Positions 17,727-64,000 of a stretch of DNA of 64,000 nucleotides are shown here, piece by piece; position 1 is the stretch's first letter; the number at the start of each line of letters is the position of its first letter. The translations under genes were made by a program, and so were the position numbers. This DNA is from a virus, in the IMG/VR virus record IMGVR_UViG_3300049491_000350, positions 18,751 through 82,750 of that record, one strand, 5' to 3'. The notes below the pieces were generated by a model. That model worked only from the letters and a program-made list of their open reading frames with translations. It did no database searches and was not told the DNA's origin.

Positions 17727-20700
17727 ATGGGTCAGGTAATAAAAGTATTTAAACCATCGTATGTAAACACAGATGCTGATGCTATGTCATTAAAGCCTGT
17801 GGAATCTCCCTTTATAAAAGACTATACAGTTGAGGTTAATGATAACGGTGAGTTGCCTTCTAATACTGGCAATGATGTAAAGGTTGGCGGCAATATGAAT
17901 GTCGGCACACCTCTTTCTGCCAATATTAAATTATGCACCCCGGAACTGCCAGATGGATTCAATAAGATTGTTGGCTCTGGCGAATTTACAGAAACCAATG
18001 AATTATATGTTTGCTTCTACAACTCTAAGGGCAAGCATGGCGTGTACCTGATAGATGGCAATACAATGCGTTGCAGGAAAATAATATTTGACGCAAACCT
18101 CAACTTCTCTCTTGACCCGGCATTTGCCATCCCTGCACACAAGATGAGCTTGCGTGTGGTGTATGACGAACAAAATGGGGAATTGAGGAGTATTGTAGAA
18201 AAGCATTTAATCTTTACAGATAGTAACAACTGGCAACGCTGGATAAACGTGGAGGCCGCAATTAAAACAGATGGATTTAACGAGGTTCTTTTCCCATACT
18301 GGAAAACAAGGCTTCCTCATTTTGACAGGGCTGAATATATAGACTATATCACAAGGCCTCCAATGCACTGCCCATCTGTTATACCAGTTCCATTTTCGGA
18401 TACTGATAAGGGTAAGATAAATAAGCTGCTGAATGAAAGTGTTCAATTTGCTTATGACTTTATATACACAGATGGAAGGCCTACATCTGTATCTCAATAT
18501 AGCTTGCCATTCTCTGTAACATCTTCGTCCTGTAACCCTAACAGTGCGAACTTGAGCAGGTGCGTTGATATTGTCCTGTATGCAGGCTCTCCTATGGTTG
18601 AGAAGATACGTTTATATATGAGGCCTTGCGGAGGCGAATGGGTTCTGTATGATACAATAGAAAGATTCAGCACCTGTGGCGATAACGACCCGGCACTTAT
18701 TGGCAATGAATACTGGAAGCGCACAGGGCAATGGGCTGACGTTGGTTACGACCCGGTTAAGAATACAATCAAGTACAGGTGGTGCGGCGACAAAGAGTTC
18801 CAGATTGCAGATAAAGAACATTTGAAAAGGCTTCAAAACGATATGCCTATCAAATCAATTGCAATGACACCTGCTGGCGATGCAATCCTTCTATGCAACA
18901 ACCTGTATGGGTATGAGAACCTATCATGTTCTGTTACAGATAAGATTGCATTAAGCACCATACCTGATGACGCTACTGCTGGCTGTAAAGTTGACATGGT
19001 TAAAATAACTGTCTATTCGTATATGGGTAGCGGTGATTACTTCCATTCACAGGCGGTGTACAAGCGTGGTGCTGCTTCAACCAGCAGGGATTTTGGTGGG
19101 TTCTTCCTTGACTATTCAAGAAGTGGCACTACCGTTAACGAGGAGTTCTCTCTTAATCAAGGTGCAGTAGATTACTTCGGCATGAAGCTGAACAATAAAG
19201 ACGGGCATATCCTTTATCTGGCAGGCACACCTTACTATGCGATTGGCAAACAATGTATAGTAACTGCTGCTGGTGTTATAAGAGAGTTTGGTATCCCGGA
19301 CTTCAATAGCAACGAGGAGTTTAATTTTGTAAAAGCATGGGTACAAGGCGGAGGCTTTTTTGTAGAGAAATATGAGTTTACTGTACCTAAAGGAAAATAT
19401 ATAGCCCGGATGGCTGGGCATTCATCAATGCCAGATGACGATTACTCAAAGACATCTACATGGGTGATGGGAATAGCTGATAGCAGGATACGGACACAAG
19501 GCGGTGCGATTGTAAATTTCTATCAGGCTAAAAAGAGTTATAGCAAAGAGATTGAAATAGATGCAACTAACGGCAACGTTGACCTGTGGGGTACTGGCGC
19601 AGATTTATTTTATATCTTCTGCCCATATTATTTTGATAGCGGCGCATTATTCAATGTAGCTGGCGATGCTGAAAGATGGAGGTTTAATGAAGGGTATGTC
19701 AACGAGGACAATCAGAACAAGATAGGAGTAGAGCTTCTTCGCTATGGTAACAATCATGGCCAATTTTTCAGGGATGGATTTTTTACTGACCACAACGGAT
19801 TCTTTTTTGCGTTTGTCGGCAGGGGCGAAGCAAGGTATGCAGAGGTTGATTTCCGGGGTACGCTTAATTGCAAGACTACAAACAATGTTTTGTTTTCATC
19901 AAAGAATGGCTCGTCTCCCGGAGGTTTATTCAGTTGGGGTGCTGATTCTGTCTATGTAAAATACAATGCTACCATAAAGGATAACAACGCTGGTATTATA
20001 GGCGATTGCAACCGGGTACTGGTAAAGGGCAAGATAACTGATTGCGATGGCGTGAACGGGCTTGCTGGGGTCGCTGTAACCATTACCAGAGGTGCTACGG
20101 CTTACACTGGCAGCGATGGAACATTTGAGCTTATAGTGCATAACAGCTATGAGGCAATAAGGAAAGATAAGATATATGTAAATGCTGGCGGCGAATGCTT
20201 GTTTTATACATGCGACTGTAAAGCCCCGGAGCTTTACCCTTACGACAGCTCCCTATCTCCATGCGTTGCGTGTAACGTAAGGAACTACCCTACATCAATA
20301 GACGCAAAATTCAAGCTGGTAGTAGGCAGGAACAAAGCGTTGAAAGGCGGTGGCAGGTATGGCGTAGGAATGGTAGCATGGGATTTGGGCGGCAGGGGAA
20401 CATTCGTTAACAGGATAAATTATGTTGACATACCAACCTTCCTTCAAACAAATTCTTATGCTCCGCAAAAAATAAAAGCATCGTTTCCGGCTTCTCTTGG
20501 ACTGCCAAAGGGAACTGCATACGTTTCATTTTTCAGGACACCGAACCTGAATTTCAGGTCATACCTGCAATGGGTAGGAGACGGAATAAAATTCCTTGAC
20601 ACAAAGGGCGATGAGGTTACAACTAAGGGAGGTTTGATTCGTGCCAAGATTACGATTCAATCTCTTTTAGATTTCAACGTAGATAATAACTTCGCAACGA

Positions 20701-58344: not shown

Positions 58345-58484
58345 TGTGTATCCTTTTTAATTTCGCCAGCATTCGATGAATTGCTTTTTGCATTCACAGA
58401 ATAGCTGACTGTGATAACTGCCTTTTGATAACGCTTTACCATGTTTTTAAAGTAGGTAAGTTCCTTTCTTTCTTCTCTTGTCAT
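58329..58484 (-). CDS. Small hypothetical protein (true start MTREERK at 58484)
   Basis: The ORF-track N-terminal extension is translated ribozyme/leader; this ATG lies 44 nt after the cleavage site. Confidence 0.55.
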   Translation of the reverse strand: MTREERKELTYFKNMVKRYQKAVITVSYSVNAKSNSSNAGEIKKDTQCQQS

Positions 58485-58522
58485 CGTTTGTATGTGCCTG
58501 TTATAGTCTGCACCTGACTTTT

Positions 58523-58574
58523 GATTAAGACTGGCTTGCGCCAGTTTCGCCGCATGACGGCTCATCAGTTAATC
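58523..58574 (-). ncRNA. Type I hammerhead ribozyme HH-A
   Basis: GAUUAA CUGAUGA GCCG ucaug CGGC GAAA CUGGC gcaa GCCAG UC^ UUAAUC; cleavage between 58529 and 58528. Confidence 0.93.
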
Positions 58575-58799
58575 TTAATTAAATTCCAGTTTGTTATTCT
58601 CTGGGTTAAAATACCTTTTAGTTTCGCCACGCAATACGCCGCCTCTGTCTTTCATTGATGCAGTTATTAAATACCTTCCATCAGGCTGCTTCTTAACAGA
58701 GAAGCTACTCATGGTTTGCCCAAAAAATTTCAATGTCTCTTTAGTAAAAAAGAACGGTGCTGTTTCTTTTGTCGCTTCTTTGATTTGATAAATTGTCAT
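58575..58799 (-). CDS. Hypothetical early protein
   Basis: 74 aa (APFFFTKETLKFFGQTM); flanked by two hammerheads. Confidence 0.7.
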   Translation of the reverse strand: MTIYQIKEATKETAPFFFTKETLKFFGQTMSSFSVKKQPDGRYLITASMKDRGGVLRGETKRYFNPENNKLEFN

Positions 58800-58837
58800 C
58801 GTTTATGAGTGCCTGTTATAGACTGCACCTGTCTTTT

Positions 58838-58892
58838 GGTTAAGACTGGCATTGCTGCCAGTTTCGGCTATTGAAGCCATCGTCAGTTAACC
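58838..58892 (-). ncRNA. Type I hammerhead ribozyme HH-B (CUGACGA core with extra U)
   Basis: GGUUAA CUGACGA u GGCU ucaau AGCC GAAA CUGGCA gcaa UGCCAG UC^ UUAACC. Confidence 0.88.
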
Positions 58893-59555
58893 TTTTACGG
58901 GGTAAACAAAGCGAATATTATGACCCCATTTGCGTTTGCTATAATCTTCGCCAGATTCATGGAACGAGAAAGTAAAGCCTGCAACATTATCGGAAAGAAG
59001 GCTGTTATTGAACTGGTGTATAATGCTTTTATGTTGTTCTGACCAGTCAATAGTTTTATCGTTTTCATTTATCCAGCCAATTTCCTTACCGTATGAAGTG
59101 AAAACAATAGTGTTAATCAAATCAACCTTAATAGCAATCAAACCTTTGGATATTACAAACGGGTTGCCAATGATAATGCAGTTAAGCGTTTCTGCACCTC
59201 TCCAATTGTTTACGCTTTTGCCAGACTGAATAATGTCAGCAAGTTCCTCCACTGGCATATCATAATGCGAAGCCATGCCTGCAATGCTTATCCAGTTATT
59301 TACAAATTCAATGTAAACCCTCTCTGGCTTTACAGTCCTGATATTCTGTTTGGTTATCTTGTTAGCTTCCTTTTCATCTACATTTTCAAATGTAGAGACA
59401 TTGAACTGGTGAAGCAATTTATTGTCAGTGCGCCTGTATATTGAAAAGATTCCAGCAGTTTCAATACCATAGTTGTAAGTCCTCCGCTTGCCTTTGTAGT
59501 AAGCGTAACGTTCTTTGTTTGAACGGATAATTATTTCCTGTATTTTCTTGTCCAT
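58887..59555 (-). CDS. Hypothetical early protein
   Basis: 222 aa; ends GGT TAA inside HH-B stem I. Confidence 0.7.
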   Translation of the reverse strand: MDKKIQEIIIRSNKERYAYYKGKRRTYNYGIETAGIFSIYRRTDNKLLHQFNVSTFENVDEKEANKITKQNIRTVKPERVYIEFVNNWISIAGMASHYDMPVEELADIIQSGKSVNNWRGAETLNCIIIGNPFVISKGLIAIKVDLINTIVFTSYGKEIGWINENDKTIDWSEQHKSIIHQFNNSLLSDNVAGFTFSFHESGEDYSKRKWGHNIRFVYPVKG

Positions 59556-59562
59556 TTTGTTT

Positions 59563-59590
59563 GAGTGCCTGTTATAGACTGCACCTGTCT
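59563..59590 (-). repeat. Leader-only copy of the array repeat (no ribozyme)
   Basis: AGACaggtgcaGTCTataacaggcactc directly after the upstream TAA. Confidence 0.85.
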
Positions 59591-60157
59591 TTAGTTTTTA
59601 AAATATTTTACAAAGTATTCTCTGGCTGCTTTTTTGTATTCATCCTCACCACTTTCAAAGTCGCTAACCATCATCGCCAGAGATTCACATTCTGGAGATT
59701 TGCACCAGCCCATTTGAAACTCATTGTACTTTTCAAAGTATTCTTTGTCAGTATCACCCGGCTTTAATGTTATAAAGCCAAGCAGAGACACAAGCGATTC
59801 TATACTGTCCTGTGCAAACATTGTAGATGGCTTAAAGTCTATGCCTTCAAACAATATCTCATCACCTAAGCATACAGTATAGTCAACTTTTTCTCCACCA
59901 ATGTAAACAAGGTAAGCAGAGAGGTTAAGGTCAGGAATCTCTAAGCCACAAAGAAAGTTGTCATCATCCATTATAAATTCCTTTACAGATTCAATTGCAT
60001 CTTCAAACTCAATCCTTGTTTTAGGAGTTCTTTTATGTCCAAATTCTTTGAACAAATCCCATGCAACAGATTCACTTCTTTCATCAATCTGCGTAGTGTC
60101 AATCACCTTATCATTTCCATTAAGGTAAGTAACATTGTAAACGGTTCTATGTTTCAT
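59591..60157 (-). CDS. Hypothetical early protein (true start MKHR at 60157)
   Basis: Acidic; SLLGFITLKPGDTDKEYFEKY; ATG 44 nt after the HH-C cleavage site. Confidence 0.7.
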   Translation of the reverse strand: MKHRTVYNVTYLNGNDKVIDTTQIDERSESVAWDLFKEFGHKRTPKTRIEFEDAIESVKEFIMDDDNFLCGLEIPDLNLSAYLVYIGGEKVDYTVCLGDEILFEGIDFKPSTMFAQDSIESLVSLLGFITLKPGDTDKEYFEKYNEFQMGWCKSPECESLAMMVSDFESGEDEYKKAAREYFVKYFKN

Positions 60158-60195
60158 GCGTTGTATGTGCCTGTTATAGTCTGCACCTGACTTTT

Positions 60196-60247
60196 GATTA
60201 AGACTGGCTTGCGCCAGTTTCGCCGCATGACGGCTCATCAGTTAACC
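60196..60247 (-). ncRNA. Type I hammerhead ribozyme HH-C
   Basis: GGUUAA CUGAUGA GCCG ucaug CGGC GAAA CUGGC gcaa GCCAG UC^ UUAAUC (G-U pair in stem I). Confidence 0.93.
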
Positions 60248-60796
60248 TTCCTTCTCATCAGTGTGAGGGAAAAACCTGCCATCTCTGGTAAAATAATATT
60301 CGTTTATTATGATAGTTTCCTTTACTGATTCTTCCCCGGTAAGGTAGTCGTATTCATTGCTTAATATAGTAAGGTAGTCTCCTGCAATTTCTTCTTTGAA
60401 CTCATCATCAATAGTATCAACTTCATTGTCAAAATCATACTCATTCTCTGGTGTAACAGTAGTTTTATCTGTGCCATCAGAATACTTTTCAACCAGAGCA
60501 TTGTATGCCAGCCTATGCTTCATTGCAGTTTTGTATGTGTCGCAACTTTCGCCATGCTCTTTAATAATAAGGTCAACAGTGTCAGATGCTGTATTTGACA
60601 GGACAATGCTGCAAAACCTACCTCTATCAATATCAAACCCATTAATCTTAATGCCAACATTTTCAGCATCTGAATAGATGTTTTCATACCATCTGTCATC
60701 TACATTTATGTTTGCAAAATGATTCATTGCAACCTCTTTCGCTTTGTCGTTAAGTTCTTCAAACTTGAAAACTTTTGTTCTTATTGTTTTACTCAT
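60242..60796 (-). CDS. Acidic hypothetical early protein (true start MSKT at 60796)
   Basis: VFKFEELNDKAKEVA...EYDYLTGEESVKETIIINEYYFTRDG, a pattern I recognise from a widespread uncharacterised phage/plasmid family. Confidence 0.7.
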   Translation of the reverse strand: MSKTIRTKVFKFEELNDKAKEVAMNHFANINVDDRWYENIYSDAENVGIKINGFDIDRGRFCSIVLSNTASDTVDLIIKEHGESCDTYKTAMKHRLAYNALVEKYSDGTDKTTVTPENEYDFDNEVDTIDDEFKEEIAGDYLTILSNEYDYLTGEESVKETIIINEYYFTRDGRFFPHTDEKEG

Positions 60797-60835
60797 AACA
60801 TTATTGCAGCCTGTTATAGTGTGCGCCTCACTTTT

Positions 60836-60895
60836 GGTTAATACGCTGCTGCAATTACAGCAGCGTTTCAGGTATTGAACCCTCATCAGTTAACC
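60836..60895 (-). ncRNA. Type I hammerhead ribozyme HH-D (GUA cleavage triplet)
   Basis: GGUUAA CUGAUGA GGGU ucaau ACCU GAAA CGCUGCUG uaauug CAGCAGCG UA^ UUAACC. Confidence 0.88.
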
Positions 60896-61308
60896 TCGCC
60901 GTCTTTTTTGAAGCATAACTTTCCGTAAGCAGATGCAATATTGAAAAAGTGCGTTTCCTCGGTAGGGTGTATTGTAATTTCAGTTAAACTTTTACCGGGA
61001 GTGCCAATTTTAATACTGTCAACAGTAATGTAAGAACGCTTTGAATATTCTGAAATAGCCTGCTTTAACAATACAGCATAATCATTTGGAAGGTGCATAG
61101 TTGCAGGCTTAGTCCATATCGCTTTTTCTTTTTCCTGACCATGCTGCATTCCCATTTCAAAAATATCTGTTTGAGAAAAATCTCCGTTATCCGTTACGGA
61201 TATTTTGCCGTCATTAATTTCAGTTTCGCAAGCCAGATGGTTTTCAAGAAATTCCTTTGCGCCATCAGCGTTTTTGCCTAACTGTCTTTGGTCTAATAAT
61301 ATTTTCAT
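60886..61308 (-). CDS. Hypothetical early protein
   Basis: 140 aa; its TGA stop is the UGA of the HH-D catalytic core. Confidence 0.7.
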   Translation of the reverse strand: MKILLDQRQLGKNADGAKEFLENHLACETEINDGKISVTDNGDFSQTDIFEMGMQHGQEKEKAIWTKPATMHLPNDYAVLLKQAISEYSKRSYITVDSIKIGTPGKSLTEITIHPTEETHFFNIASAYGKLCFKKDGEVN

Positions 61309-61346
61309 ACACTATGTGTGCCTGTTATAGTCTGCACCTGACTTTT

Positions 61347-61400
61347 GATTAAGACTGGCATTGCTGCCAGTTTCGGGTACTGAACCCTCATCAGTTAATC
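61347..61400 (-). ncRNA. Type I hammerhead ribozyme HH-E
   Basis: GAUUAA CUGAUGA GGGU ucagu ACCC GAAA CUGGCA gcaa UGCCAG UC^ UUAAUC. Confidence 0.93.
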
Positions 61401-61655
61401 TTCCCACATCATTTGCTCTAATGTATCATAATCAGCATCTGGCTTTACAAAGTGCAGGCAGTCTATAATGTGGCAGTCAGTTCCTTCTTCACAGCCAGTA
61501 TAGTTTGTTATTGCCTGCATGTATATTTCAGGAACGTTTGGAATGCCTTTGTAAGGGCAATGTTGAAACGGGCAGCAATGCCCTGCTATTTCGATTTTAT
61601 TACAGCCAGCCAGCATAATGCAGGCAACTATAATGATTTTAATTTTGCTTCTCAT
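61395..61655 (-). CDS. Putative Cys-rich lipoprotein
   Basis: Probable start MRSKIKIIIVACIMLAG|C (lipobox); ends GAT TAA in HH-E stem I. Confidence 0.55.
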   Translation of the reverse strand: MRSKIKIIIVACIMLAGCNKIEIAGHCCPFQHCPYKGIPNVPEIYMQAITNYTGCEEGTDCHIIDCLHFVKPDADYDTLEQMMWED

Positions 61656-61962
61656 TTTCGATGTTGGTTTTATTTGTGTTATACTCATCAGTTGTAATTA
61701 ACCCCATGTCAAAATTGTCCTGATTCTCTTTAAGCCTTGCAGCTTTGTTCCCATCTGCTTCTGCTTTTTGCATTGCTACATATAAGTCAGCAATTTCTGC
61801 CATGCGTTTAAGTTCCTTCCGGGCAATCTCTTTTCCTTTTTCGTTGCCATCTTGCAATACAGTAAGGTAGTAAGGCAGAATGCCTACCCATGTTGGGGTG
61901 CAATCAATAACCCCAACAACCTTGCCTTTAATAACAGTTGTTTCTTGTTTTTTACTTTTCAT
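61639..61962 (-). CDS. Hypothetical early protein
   Basis: 107 aa; TPTWVGILP...ARKELKRMAEIAD. Confidence 0.7.
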   Translation of the reverse strand: MKSKKQETTVIKGKVVGVIDCTPTWVGILPYYLTVLQDGNEKGKEIARKELKRMAEIADLYVAMQKAEADGNKAARLKENQDNFDMGLITTDEYNTNKTNIENEKQN

Positions 61963-62004
61963 CGTTTATGAGTGCCTGTTATAGACTGCACCTGTCTTTT
62001 GGTT
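61963..62004 (-). repeat. Leader-only copy of the array repeat (no ribozyme)
   Basis: aaccaaaagacaggtgcagtctataacaggcactcataaacg-ATG, identical to the HH-B leader through the start codon. Confidence 0.88.
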
Positions 62005-62288
62005 TAATATTTTAATTCAGAAGTAATGTATCTGCATTCTTTTTCCAGCATTGAAATAAGAGATTCAAGTTGCCTTTCTTTTCTTTCAGCCAGCCTATAT
62101 AGCTCATCGGATTCATTAAACATTGAAAGGGTTAAATAGTGTCCTGCATTGTTATTGTACAAACCTTCGGCTAAAAGAATGCAGTCAATTACATGCTGGA
62201 AAAACTGTACAGCATTGCCATTTATTTCATCTTCATAAATGAATGCTCTGTTAAAAGCCTCCATCTGTATTTTTATTACTGACAACAT
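62004..62288 (-). CDS. Hypothetical early protein
   Basis: 94 aa; ATG 45 nt after the HH-F cleavage site. Confidence 0.65.
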   Translation of the reverse strand: MLSVIKIQMEAFNRAFIYEDEINGNAVQFFQHVIDCILLAEGLYNNNAGHYLTLSMFNESDELYRLAERKERQLESLISMLEKECRYITSELKY

Positions 62289-62327
62289 ATATTTTCAGCA
62301 GCCTGTTATAGTGTGCGCCTCACTTTT

Positions 62328-62387
62328 GGTTAAGACACTGCTGCAATGCCAGCAGTGTTTCGCCGTTTCACGGCTCATCAGTTAACC
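62328..62387 (-). ncRNA. Type I hammerhead ribozyme HH-F
   Basis: GGUUAA CUGAUGA GCCG ugaaa CGGC GAAA CACUGCUG gcauug CAGCAGUG UC^ UUAACC. Confidence 0.93.
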
Positions 62388-63338
62388 TTTTTTATTCCAG
62401 CCTAACAAGCCAGCAATGTATTCAATTTCGCTTACTGGTATGTGATGGCAACCCACTTCCAAAACGTCTTTAGTAGCTTTATTAACGTTGTATTCCAGCA
62501 TCTTGAAATTGCAATCTCCATCACAGCCGCCAGCAGCAACTATTCTGTTATAAAAGGCATAGTAACGCTTTGCAACATCGGTAGGAATATCTACCCCTTT
62601 GAATGTATTAACAACGTTACCGGATAGGCGCAAATAGGTTGTATTTTCATACCTTACTTGATTATAGTAAAACTCAAAATTTGTTTTCATTGCGCCTTTT
62701 ATAGATTCGGAAAACTCTGTTTTTGATTGCCCACTTTTCCAGCTATCAATAAACGATTGAAATACCTTTTTGCCAGCCTTCATCTTTTTGTCAAACGCTT
62801 TTGCTTGTGCAATCTTTTCTGCCTCCGCCGCCTTGTTTGCTTTGTCCATTGCCTCTTTAAATTCGCCAGCATTTGAAAAGCTAATTTCAGCCTGTTGTTT
62901 TGCCGATATTTCAATATTAAAAAATGCAGTGTATTTATTCAATAGTTCTTTTTGTGCATCTATTTGAGCCATGTAAATGGCAGGCTTACGAGCCGTTGTT
63001 AATTTGTTCTTTGCAATTGATACAATGTTAAAAATAAAGGAGGCAACATTGTTTGCATGGTAATTCCTTGCTGCCTCATCAGGATTCATGCAGTAGATTA
63101 TATCAAGATGAGACACTGCACTTTTTACCAGAGAGATATGACCGGAAGTTGTATTGCTGTAAGTACGTGTTGTAAACAATACAATGCCATTGTAATGGAC
63201 TGCAATAGGGAAGTGCCTGCCATAGCTGTAAATGGTATCACCATCGAAATAAAAATTGCCATGTGCAACCCTGCCTTCATCCTGCACTTTGTTTGCCCAA
63301 AAATGTGCAACCTGATTTGTTCCTAATATTCTTTTCAT
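62382..63338 (-). CDS. Hypothetical early protein
   Basis: 318 aa; VAHFWAN...IYSYGRHFPIA...YSNTTSGH...VGCHHI, a conserved-looking uncharacterised phage family. Confidence 0.75.
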   Translation of the reverse strand: MKRILGTNQVAHFWANKVQDEGRVAHGNFYFDGDTIYSYGRHFPIAVHYNGIVLFTTRTYSNTTSGHISLVKSAVSHLDIIYCMNPDEAARNYHANNVASFIFNIVSIAKNKLTTARKPAIYMAQIDAQKELLNKYTAFFNIEISAKQQAEISFSNAGEFKEAMDKANKAAEAEKIAQAKAFDKKMKAGKKVFQSFIDSWKSGQSKTEFSESIKGAMKTNFEFYYNQVRYENTTYLRLSGNVVNTFKGVDIPTDVAKRYYAFYNRIVAAGGCDGDCNFKMLEYNVNKATKDVLEVGCHHIPVSEIEYIAGLLGWNKKG

Positions 63339-63376
63339 AATTGTTGTGCGCCTGTTATAGTCTGCGGCTGACTTTT

Positions 63377-63436
63377 GGTTAAGACACTACTGCAATGCCA
63401 GCAGTGTTTCGCCGTTTCACGGCTCATCAGTTAACC
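63377..63436 (-). ncRNA. Type I hammerhead ribozyme HH-G
   Basis: GGUUAA CUGAUGA GCCG ugaaa CGGC GAAA CACUGCUG gcauug CAGUAGUG UC^ UUAACC. Confidence 0.93.
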
Positions 63437-63706
63437 TTTAATTTCTTCTCTCATTCTTTTAATCATTTGCAGTTCTGTATTAATGCAGCGTACATGGTGA
63501 AGCGTATAAATTTCGCCATGCAGCCATCCATTGCCGTTAGTAGCTTCCTTAACATCATTTAAAAATGATTCGGTTTGTTTAATAGCTCTCGTCATGTAAG
63601 CCTTTTTGCTTGCAATTGTTTTGTAGTCGCTAAGAATTTCGAGAGTGATTTTTTTTGTTTCACTTAGCGGAGTGATACGAGCTAAGTAGTTTTTAGAAGT
63701 TGACAT
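63431..63706 (-). CDS. Hypothetical early protein (first gene of the array)
   Basis: 91 aa; ends GGT TAA in HH-G stem I. Confidence 0.65.
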   Translation of the reverse strand: MSTSKNYLARITPLSETKKITLEILSDYKTIASKKAYMTRAIKQTESFLNDVKEATNGNGWLHGEIYTLHHVRCINTELQMIKRMREEIKG

Positions 63707-63713
63707 ATTTTTT

Positions 63714-63748
63714 GCCCGTCTGTTATAGTCTGCGGCTGACTGTTATAT
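63714..63748 (-). repeat. Leader-only copy at the head of the array
   Basis: tataacAGTCagccgcaGACTataacagacgggc upstream of the ATG at 63706. Confidence 0.8.
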
Positions 63749-63897
63749 TAAGAAAAAACACATATCAAATAGAGTGCGTTCCCTGAATCCGATATGCAAT
63801 ATTAGGACTATTCTTTTAATCAAACAATAAAAAGTTATCCACATAGCAGCAAAGCCACACATTTGCGCCAGCCACCTTATCAAACAAAAGGAGTGCA

Positions 63898-63975
63898 GAG
63901 CAGCCAGCATAGCAGCAGCCAGCGTAGCCAGTAGCATCAGCAGCAGGCAGGCAGCAGCCTGCCAGCAGCAGCAGT
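63898..63975. repeat. GC-rich degenerate (CAG/CCAG/GCAG)n low-complexity tract
   Basis: cagccagcatagcagcagccagcgtagccagtagcatcagcagcaggcaggcagcagcc... Confidence 0.7.
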
Positions 63976-64000
63976 TCCCCGGCAATCGTTCCGGGCAATC

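Follow-up and report, generated by a model that had tools for sequence, protein, structure and literature searches.

Compact H-type pseudoknots lie at the ribosome-binding sites of several RNAs, among them the preQ1-I riboswitch and the rpsO and T4 gene 32 pseudoknots. A pseudoknot is also part of a ribozyme, the pseudoknot or RAGATH-1 hammerhead (Rfam family RF03152), in whose crystal structure (PDB 8YDC) the pseudoknot helix replaces helix II and the minor groove of helix IV is occupied by an AUAAAA strand, forming an A-minor triplex (Zhan et al. 2024, PMC11300833), a feature common to pistol and the NAD+-II riboswitch (PMC11300833). In RiboJ, the sTRSV hammerhead is followed by a 23-nt hairpin ahead of the ribosome-binding site (PMC6206723), and among the natural examples described by Perreault et al. 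(2011, PMC3088659) are prophage and phage polycistrons in which several hammerheads flank single small genes, including anti-restriction genes. Here we describe a leader element that stands ahead of ten small genes in a 64,000-nt stretch of viral DNA (positions 18,751 to 82,750 of IMG/VR record IMGVR_UViG_3300049491_000350, a record about 65% complete); this whole stretch is called the window below. We conclude from covariation that the leader is a 26-nt H-type pseudoknot. As far as sequence comparison can indicate, its most likely function is to control translation initiation, in cis on the gene behind it, on ribosomes that are blind to the Shine-Dalgarno (SD) sequence.

The plus-strand sequence CTGTTATAG occurs exactly ten times in the window, with all occurrences lying within 58498-63728, whereas shuffled sequences contained it 0.66 times on average and 0 of 100 shuffles reached ten. 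This count bears out the statement of a first-pass annotation, made from the letters of the window, that ctgttatag (plus strand) is invariant in all ten copies. Read on the minus strand, every copy has the form AAA-[4 bp/7 nt]-CUAUAACAG-G/A-C followed by an ATG, and one copy stands ahead of each of ten small minus-strand open reading frames (ORFs) at 58.3-63.75 kb. When a covariance model of the leader was run against the whole 82,750-bp virus record, only the ten copies of the window were found.

The first-pass annotation had described a hairpin followed by a single-stranded invariant motif. Instead, the 7-nt loop of the hairpin (AG-NN-GC-A) is paired with GC-N'N', within the four or five bases 3' of CAG, and what had been written as AUAACAGGC consists of a pseudoknot loop and the start of the second helix. 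The fold is composed of a first stem of 4 bp (S1; A-G-N-N with N'-N'-C-U), loop L1 (AG), a second stem of 4 bp (S2; NNGC with GCN'N'), loop L2 (A) and loop L3 (AUAACAG), which gives the consensus 5'-A-G-N-N / AG / N-N-G-C / A / N'-N'-C-U / AUAACAG / G-C-N'-N'-3'. At each of the three positions 5' of S1, A is present in 90% or more of the sequences. The two variable loop bases covary with the two bases after CAG-GC, as GU/AC in the window and as AU/AU, UC/GA, AC/GU, CC/GG and GC/GC, plus G.U wobbles, in relatives from other contigs. A minority form carries one bulged base in the 3' strand of S2 (GC-N-N'N') and itself covaries, examples being CCGC with GC-A-GG, ACGC with GC-A-GU and, in two copies of the window, GCGC with GC-U-GC. 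The S1 variants AGUC/GACU, AGAC/GUCU and AGUG/CACU are all present as the earlier annotation gave them. Altogether, the S1 types are AGUC, AGAC, AGUG, ACUG, ACUU, ACAC, AGAU, ACUC, ACCC and AGUU, and the S2 types, each with a matching partner, are GUGC, AUGC, UCGC, ACGC, GCGC and CCGC.

The pairing is supported by the alignments. Among 22 sequences, 91.7% of the pair cells were paired, as compared with 25-42% when the 3' partners were slid by 1-3 columns; for 46 distinct sequences, drawn from this phage and from viral and metagenome contigs, the values were 94.3% and 28-43%. In the larger set, both sides had changed at five of the eight pairs, and the covariation score was reached by 0 of 500 shuffles. 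For a non-circular test we used matches to a DNA pattern in which the inner S1 and outer S2 positions were left free, and a match was kept if the downstream ORF matched a hidden Markov model of the gene family described below. All three free S1 pairs were formed in 20 of the 20 distinct metagenome sequences obtained in this way and both free S2 pairs in 16 of them, whereas chance matches to the same pattern scatter over 0-3 S1 pairs and 0-2 S2 pairs. The lengths of L1, L2 and L3 are 2, 1 and 7 nt in all 46 sequences, which suits the crossing of the grooves (L1 of 1-3 nt; L3 of at least 5-6 nt for an S1 of 4 bp). L1 (AG), L2 (A) and L3 (AUAACAG) show little or no variation, in contrast to the two drifting helices. 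The leader thus has the two interlocked, covarying helices that define an H-type pseudoknot. The knot would fold as a very stable rod braced by a triplex, as in the pseudoknot hammerhead.

The ten knots, here numbered c1 to c10 in the direction of transcription, all lie on the minus strand. Two have an S1 of AGUC/GACU and an S2 with 3 of 4 pairs, namely c1 (63716-63741, ATG at 63706; CCGC with ACGG) and c2 (63348-63373, ATG at 63338; CCGC with GCGC). AGUC/GACU is combined with GUGC/GCAC in c5 (61318-61343, ATG at 61308), c7 (60167-60192, ATG at 60157) and c10 (58494-58519, ATG at 58484), and AGAC/GUCU is combined with GUGC/GCAC in c4 (61972-61997, ATG at 61962), c8 (59565-59590, ATG at 59555) and c9 (58809-58834, ATG at 58799). 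The bulged S2 (GCGC with GC-U-GC) is found with AGUG/CACU in c3 (62299-62324, ATG at 62288) and c6 (60807-60832, ATG at 60796); the gene behind c6 (60245-60796) is a member of the family that has the leader in other phages. Copy c4 directly follows an upstream stop codon, and the upstream UAA of c8 abuts the knot. No hammerhead precedes c1, c4 or c8. The first-pass annotation was right that three copies without a ribozyme exist; the coordinates it assigned to them differ by about 6-13 nt from those of the knots (63716-63741, 61972-61997 and 59565-59590).

Before each of the other seven copies lies a type I hammerhead, GGUUAA-CUGAYGAK-stem II-YGAAAC-stem III-GUH^UUAAYC. All seven have the type I arrangement of a CUGANGA / GAAA / NUH core, three stems and an open stem I; their Rfam scores are weak, and cleavage is predicted. 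They are located, again on the minus strand, before c2 (63377-63436, predicted cut 63383/63382, with a stem I 3' strand UUAACC that makes up the first 6 nt of the leader), c3 (62328-62387, predicted cut 62334/62333), c5 (61347-61400, predicted cut 61353/61352), c6 (60836-60895, GUA triplet, predicted cut 60842/60841), c7 (60196-60247, predicted cut 60202/60201), c9 (58838-58892, CUGACGAU core, predicted cut 58844/58843) and c10 (58523-58574, predicted cut 58529/58528). The distance from the predicted cut to the ATG is 44, 45, 44, 45, 44, 44 and 44 nt from 63382 downwards, the same 44 or 45 nt that had been listed earlier in ascending order. UUAAYC, which had been counted as a part of the leader, simply represents the 3' strand of stem I of the hammerhead. 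The knots of the window begin 9 nt past the hammerhead cut, and those of the hammerhead-bearing relatives shown begin 9-11 nt past it. The unit of c7 (60167-60247) and that of c10 (58494-58574) consist of an identical hammerhead and an identical knot, and c4 and c9 have in common their knot and a 9-nt spacer. Judged by sequence, this sameness indicates an apparently recent duplication or gene conversion among the repeats.

Relatives of the leader were found by pattern scans and by a protein-guided search of IMG/VR and of shotgun metagenome contigs. A first DNA pattern with 14 fixed bases gave mostly chance matches and was dropped, and one candidate contig (L027) proved to carry an unrelated 16-nt tandem repeat. 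The array had no blastn match in 50,697 phage records. A search for related loci with a single family protein from the window found no relative, whereas an alignment of five members did find them. Among one genome each of 185,579 prokaryote species, the single true match to the leader was in a Bacteroidetes metagenome-assembled genome (MAG). Two of the 49 distinct scan matches are probable chance matches, and 47 were judged real. A hammerhead precedes 16 of the 49, a closed three-way junction or tRNA-like minihelix stands before at least 4, and in the others plain AU-rich sequence or an upstream stop codon takes this place. That the second module is separate from the ribozyme, as the first-pass annotation had proposed, is supported by these copies: most of those outside this phage have no hammerhead and yet show perfect compensatory changes. 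Because they stay conserved without it, the knot is an independent module.

About 33 of the 38 distinct copies outside the window precede one gene family, whose products begin with M-R-T-[IV]-R-T-K-[VL]-Y-K-F-x-E-L. Ten related viral contigs, searched whole, contain exactly one knot each, and the hammerhead in these contigs, where present, is a single one that adjoins the knot. We infer that the leader serves one gene in the relatives and that this phage copied it, mostly together with the hammerhead, ahead of ten genes. A metagenome/phage contig (L278) has two knots, at L278:1747 and L278:2540 (plus strand), one of which lies before an unrelated gene (MKKINLKK...), and spread of the leader to other genes is thus not unique to the window. 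A variant of the knot with longer loops is present ahead of the same gene family at L196:2950-3000, L170/L171:2950-3000 and L178:2960-3003 (plus strand). Its loop reads UUAG-NCGC-UU, its L3 is, for example, GAUAACAAAAAG or UUAAAAAAG, and its S2 is ACGC/GCGU or CCGC/ACGG. Because such variants occur before the same genes, the knot family is broader than the modelled 26-nt form.

The family protein has no match in Pfam, and in PHROGs it matches only phrog_5162, which has no annotated function. There was no sequence match in the PDB, Foldseek returned nothing at E <= 0.001, and VIA-align gave generic helical bundles only (Z <= 6.5). The AlphaFold model of the window member (60245-60796), which is of very high confidence (pLDDT, the predicted local distance difference test score, 95.6), has a small beta element and a long helical bundle. 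The protein is acidic, and this property would suit a DNA-mimic or anti-defence early protein.

No Rfam family matched the window at gathering thresholds, and permissive scans gave only partial matches to RF03152 and Hammerhead_3. RF03152 is the only family that touches the array, with scores of 34.8 and 28.6 bits against a gathering threshold of 56.3 that come from the hammerhead part only. The preQ1-I/II/III, NAD+-II, SAM-II/V and pistol models gave no match at E <= 10 over the 6-kb array, nor did these models at E <= 1 over 16 related loci. The RF03152 consensus opens AAguCAG...GacUAUAAAAU, and in all of 21 real pseudoknot hammerheads 4-5 loop bases are paired with the stretch that separates CUGAUGAG-A from CGAAA, eight different complementary combinations being present; these pairings were counted by script, as MAFFT misaligned the 5' half of the set. 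The window leader resembles these RNAs in its S1 (AGUC/GACU or AGAC/GUCU, with the same GUC/GAC and GAC/GUC alternation), in a loop that starts with AG, ends with A and forms a pseudoknot helix of 4-5 bp with its middle, and in the AUAA-rich strand after the hairpin. It therefore has the helix IV hairpin with an AG...A loop and the AUAA(A) strand, and like them it is intergenic in phage, just upstream of genes. In the pseudoknot hammerhead, however, helix I and the CUGAUGA core separate the A-rich strand from its partner, and the knot replaces stem II, whereas in the leader GC-N'N' directly follows the A-rich strand, and the catalytic core that RF03152 has inserted there is absent. The hammerheads of the window are ordinary type I ribozymes with a normal hairpin as stem II, and the knot stays on the downstream mRNA, unlike that of the pseudoknot hammerhead, which is on the upstream fragment. 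On this comparison of sequences, the leader is not a member of RF03152 but the brace of the pseudoknot hammerhead closed on itself.

Other known systems share the layout of the leader or its size. RiboJ has the same order of hammerhead, stable structure, short spacer and start site, which puts the same 5' leader on every cleaved mRNA. RiboJ is synthetic and has a hairpin, whereas the window leader is natural, is a pseudoknot, occurs also without a ribozyme and has no SD sequence in its spacer. By layout, hammerhead plus knot may be regarded as a natural counterpart of the RiboJ insulator. The preQ1-I, NAD+-II, rpsO and gene 32 knots resemble the leader in their length of about 26-35 nt, in an A-rich loop that runs along the first stem and in their position immediately 5' of the start codon; unlike them, the leader has no Rfam match, has an L2 of 1 nt and sequesters no SD sequence. 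The tandem hammerheads of Perreault et al. are likewise grouped around individual small genes in polycistronic RNA, but no common downstream leader structure figures in what that paper says of these loci (PMC3088659).

The position of the knot relative to the start codon is narrowly constrained. In the 47 copies accepted as real, S2 ends 7 nt (1 copy), 8 nt (7), 9 nt (25) or 10 nt (15) ahead of the ATG. The sequence of this spacer is variable, mostly A-rich, and its length is fixed at 7-10 nt. Because the length is fixed while the sequence is free, we favour a role in translation over mere protection of the 5' end. The same role is favoured because some copies (c4, c8 and several relatives) lie inside a polycistron right behind a stop codon, and because the leader sits before ten unrelated coding sequences. 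With its 3' edge at about -8 to -11, the knot would occupy the site of the SD duplex on the 30S platform, and on host ribosomes that do not use SD pairing it would position or gate the start codon. Self-cleavage of the hammerhead would remove the upstream RNA, leaving the same knot-plus-spacer leader on every gene so equipped, and the spread of the leader to ten genes would put the whole block under one regime.

The upstream regions of the window are A-rich and G-poor, and SD-like 4-mers before its genes are not enriched (7 of 57, against a background of 12%). According to two studies on this class, Bacteroidia ribosomes sequester the anti-SD, and mRNA structure tunes initiation (PMC7797042, PMC6847099). 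A Bacteroidota host fits because of the lack of SD enrichment and the A-rich, G-poor upstream regions, and the host is probably a member of this phylum. Several points weigh against this explanation. The phylum of the host is assigned solely from the absence of SD sequences and from one MAG, and a stable GC-rich knot at -10 could equally slow initiation, as Bacteroidia favour unstructured leaders. Part of the 46-sequence alignment was picked for intact S1, S2 never being a selection criterion. Finally, a gene-specific operator would explain at least as readily as a general enhancer why the knot stands before one gene family in nearly all copies outside this phage. Allowing for these points, we hold the explanation as a whole, that is, a pseudoknot leader that would control initiation in cis, be trimmed by hammerheads and have spread to ten genes, to be slightly better than an even bet.

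In one alternative, the knot would serve as an operator or sensor. A protein (for example, the family product encoded at 60245-60796) or a small ligand would bind to it and so switch translation of all ten genes together, as with T4 RegA/gp32 operators or compact pseudoknot riboswitches. We consider this unlikely, and it is our second choice, kept alive by the near-exclusive gene-family link, given that the knot is single-copy in the ten other viral contigs and that the same family stands behind most copies outside the window. It would also account for loops that are near-invariant while the helices drift, and the same triplex-braced fold is found in the NAD+-II riboswitch (PMC11300833). The conservation of the loops, however, is explained by the fold alone, the same residues being kept in the pseudoknot hammerhead, where no ligand is needed. 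With an L2 of 1 nt there is hardly space for a pocket, the Rfam riboswitch models gave no match even at E <= 10, and the family protein lacks a recognisable RNA-binding fold in Pfam, the PDB or the structural comparison, which gave generic helical bundles. A somewhat different role is that of a stabiliser or insulator that guards the 5' end against 5'-end-dependent RNases, with no direct part in initiation. In the window, 9 nt separate the knot from the hammerhead cut, and in the relatives with a hammerhead that were inspected the distance is 9-11 nt. Certain relatives have a tRNA-like minihelix or a closed three-way junction 5-6 nt ahead of the knot, and the 5' hairpin of RiboJ has been proposed to raise transcript stability (PMC6206723). 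This role leaves unexplained the strict 7-10 nt to the AUG across variable spacers, and c4, c8 and many relatives lie where a stop codon immediately precedes the knot and no processing site is close. Nine unpaired 5' nucleotides are also long for a protective 5' structure, judged by stabilisers of the E. coli ompA type, and we regard protection of the 5' end as rather improbable.

Two further readings are tied to the sequences upstream of the knot. The knot might be an accessory of the hammerhead that, as a tertiary brace or folding insulator where stem I is open, makes cleavage faster or more reliable, as the same scaffold is integral to the pseudoknot hammerhead and the order hammerhead-AAA-knot is kept in diverged phages (L107, L149, L165, L049, L279, L287, L311, L312). 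Yet conservation with compensatory changes persists in the roughly two thirds of distinct copies that have no hammerhead, the variant of the knot does not depend on that of the hammerhead within the window, and the knot is closed on itself, with no free strand for loop II, so that such a function seems very unlikely. The more specific suggestion of a tertiary partner for ribozyme loop 2 gains no support, since identical hammerheads occur with different knots (c2/c3) and identical knots follow a different stem II and loop II (c5/c7). The other reading is a DNA promoter, with TTAAYC-N17-TATAAC as -35 and -10 boxes or with the hairpin as a promoter for a phage RNA polymerase. Its spacing is sigma-70-like, and the element stands ahead of every gene. 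But TTAAYC is hammerhead stem I, which copies without a ribozyme do not have, a consensus scan did not call TATAAC, whose position 6 is not the T of a -10 box, promoter-like sites in the window are no commoner than in shuffles (19 vs 15.8), and no Bacteroidota TAnnTTTG (-7 box) is present at the knots. Because the hammerhead lies directly upstream, transcription reads through. The preference of the first-pass annotation for an RNA structure is upheld by the two interlocked helices, of which S2 covaries across the supposed -10 box, and by G.U pairs on the sense strand. A promoter is effectively excluded.

Control of initiation by the knot could be extended to a broader proposal. The knot might be a structure-based substitute for the SD sequence that docks on the platform (or on ribosomal S1) of SD-blind Bacteroidota ribosomes, with the AUG set 7-10 nt downstream and possibly gated by a factor. 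Phages would then carry it as a portable 'express this first' leader, and it would be the free-standing form of a helix IV/pseudoknot module underlying pseudoknot hammerheads and pistol-like folds. We regard this proposal as possible but doubtful. A 26-nt knot with strong covariation and a fixed distance to the AUG is a small, portable and testable element for the question of how start sites are chosen and ranked in Bacteroidota and their phages by ribosomes that ignore the SD sequence. That the brace of the pseudoknot hammerhead is also found as a module of its own is relevant to the assembly of small ribozymes from parts, and a natural leader made of ribozyme plus structure would offer an insulator part ready for use in the engineering of Bacteroidota. 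Rfam does not contain the motif, and about 45 distinct sequences from viral and shotgun metagenome contigs are enough for a new RNA family.

Other candidate functions of the knot were considered and rejected: a stimulator of frameshifting or readthrough (the knot lies about 70 nt past the stop codon), a terminator (there is no U tract, and none was called at the knots), an anticodon-loop mimic (the loop is paired) and a self-cleaving ribozyme in its own right (the knot has 26 nt and no core, and it coexists with hammerheads). The reverse complement of knot plus start codon happens to read as a strong sigma-70-like antisense promoter, TTGACA-18-TGTTATAGT, at 63700-63729 and 58478-58507 of the window (plus strand); overall, the counts are not above those of shuffles, and promoters of this kind are not those used by the likely host. 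The virus record has an 'inverted terminal repeat' in which 127 bp of its left end are identical to the reverse complement of its right end (window 63874-64000; G000:1-127); the repeat is GC-rich and contains GCTG repeats. Rather than a true terminus, it may mark a repeat at which the assembly broke, and the array thus need not lie at a physical genome end.

In some relatives, other structures occupy the positions between genes. Two tRNA-like minihelices occur at L315:255-300 and L315:910-951 (minus strand); each combines an acceptor stem of 7 bp (AACCCGU/ACGGGUU) with a 10-nt linker and a T arm that contains GGUUCGAAUCC or GGUUCGACUCC. Contigs L302 and L308 have such minihelices as well. At these loci ARAGORN called no tRNA, and Rfam gave a weak mascRNA-like match (E 0.76). 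One minihelix ends 5 nt ahead of a pseudoknot, in the slot taken elsewhere by a hammerhead, which suggests that the minihelices might serve as RNase P/Z punctuation, an alternative to self-cleavage. Closed three-way junctions, with no Rfam match and no hammerhead core, lie directly 5' of knots at L296:820-870 (plus strand), L298 (minus strand), L271/L314 (plus strand) and L304 (minus strand). They are made up of a closing stem of 6-9 bp and two small hairpins, some with UUCG-type loops, and end at N-CUAAA. Perhaps they are tRNA-like elements that have degenerated, or a processing motif of another kind.

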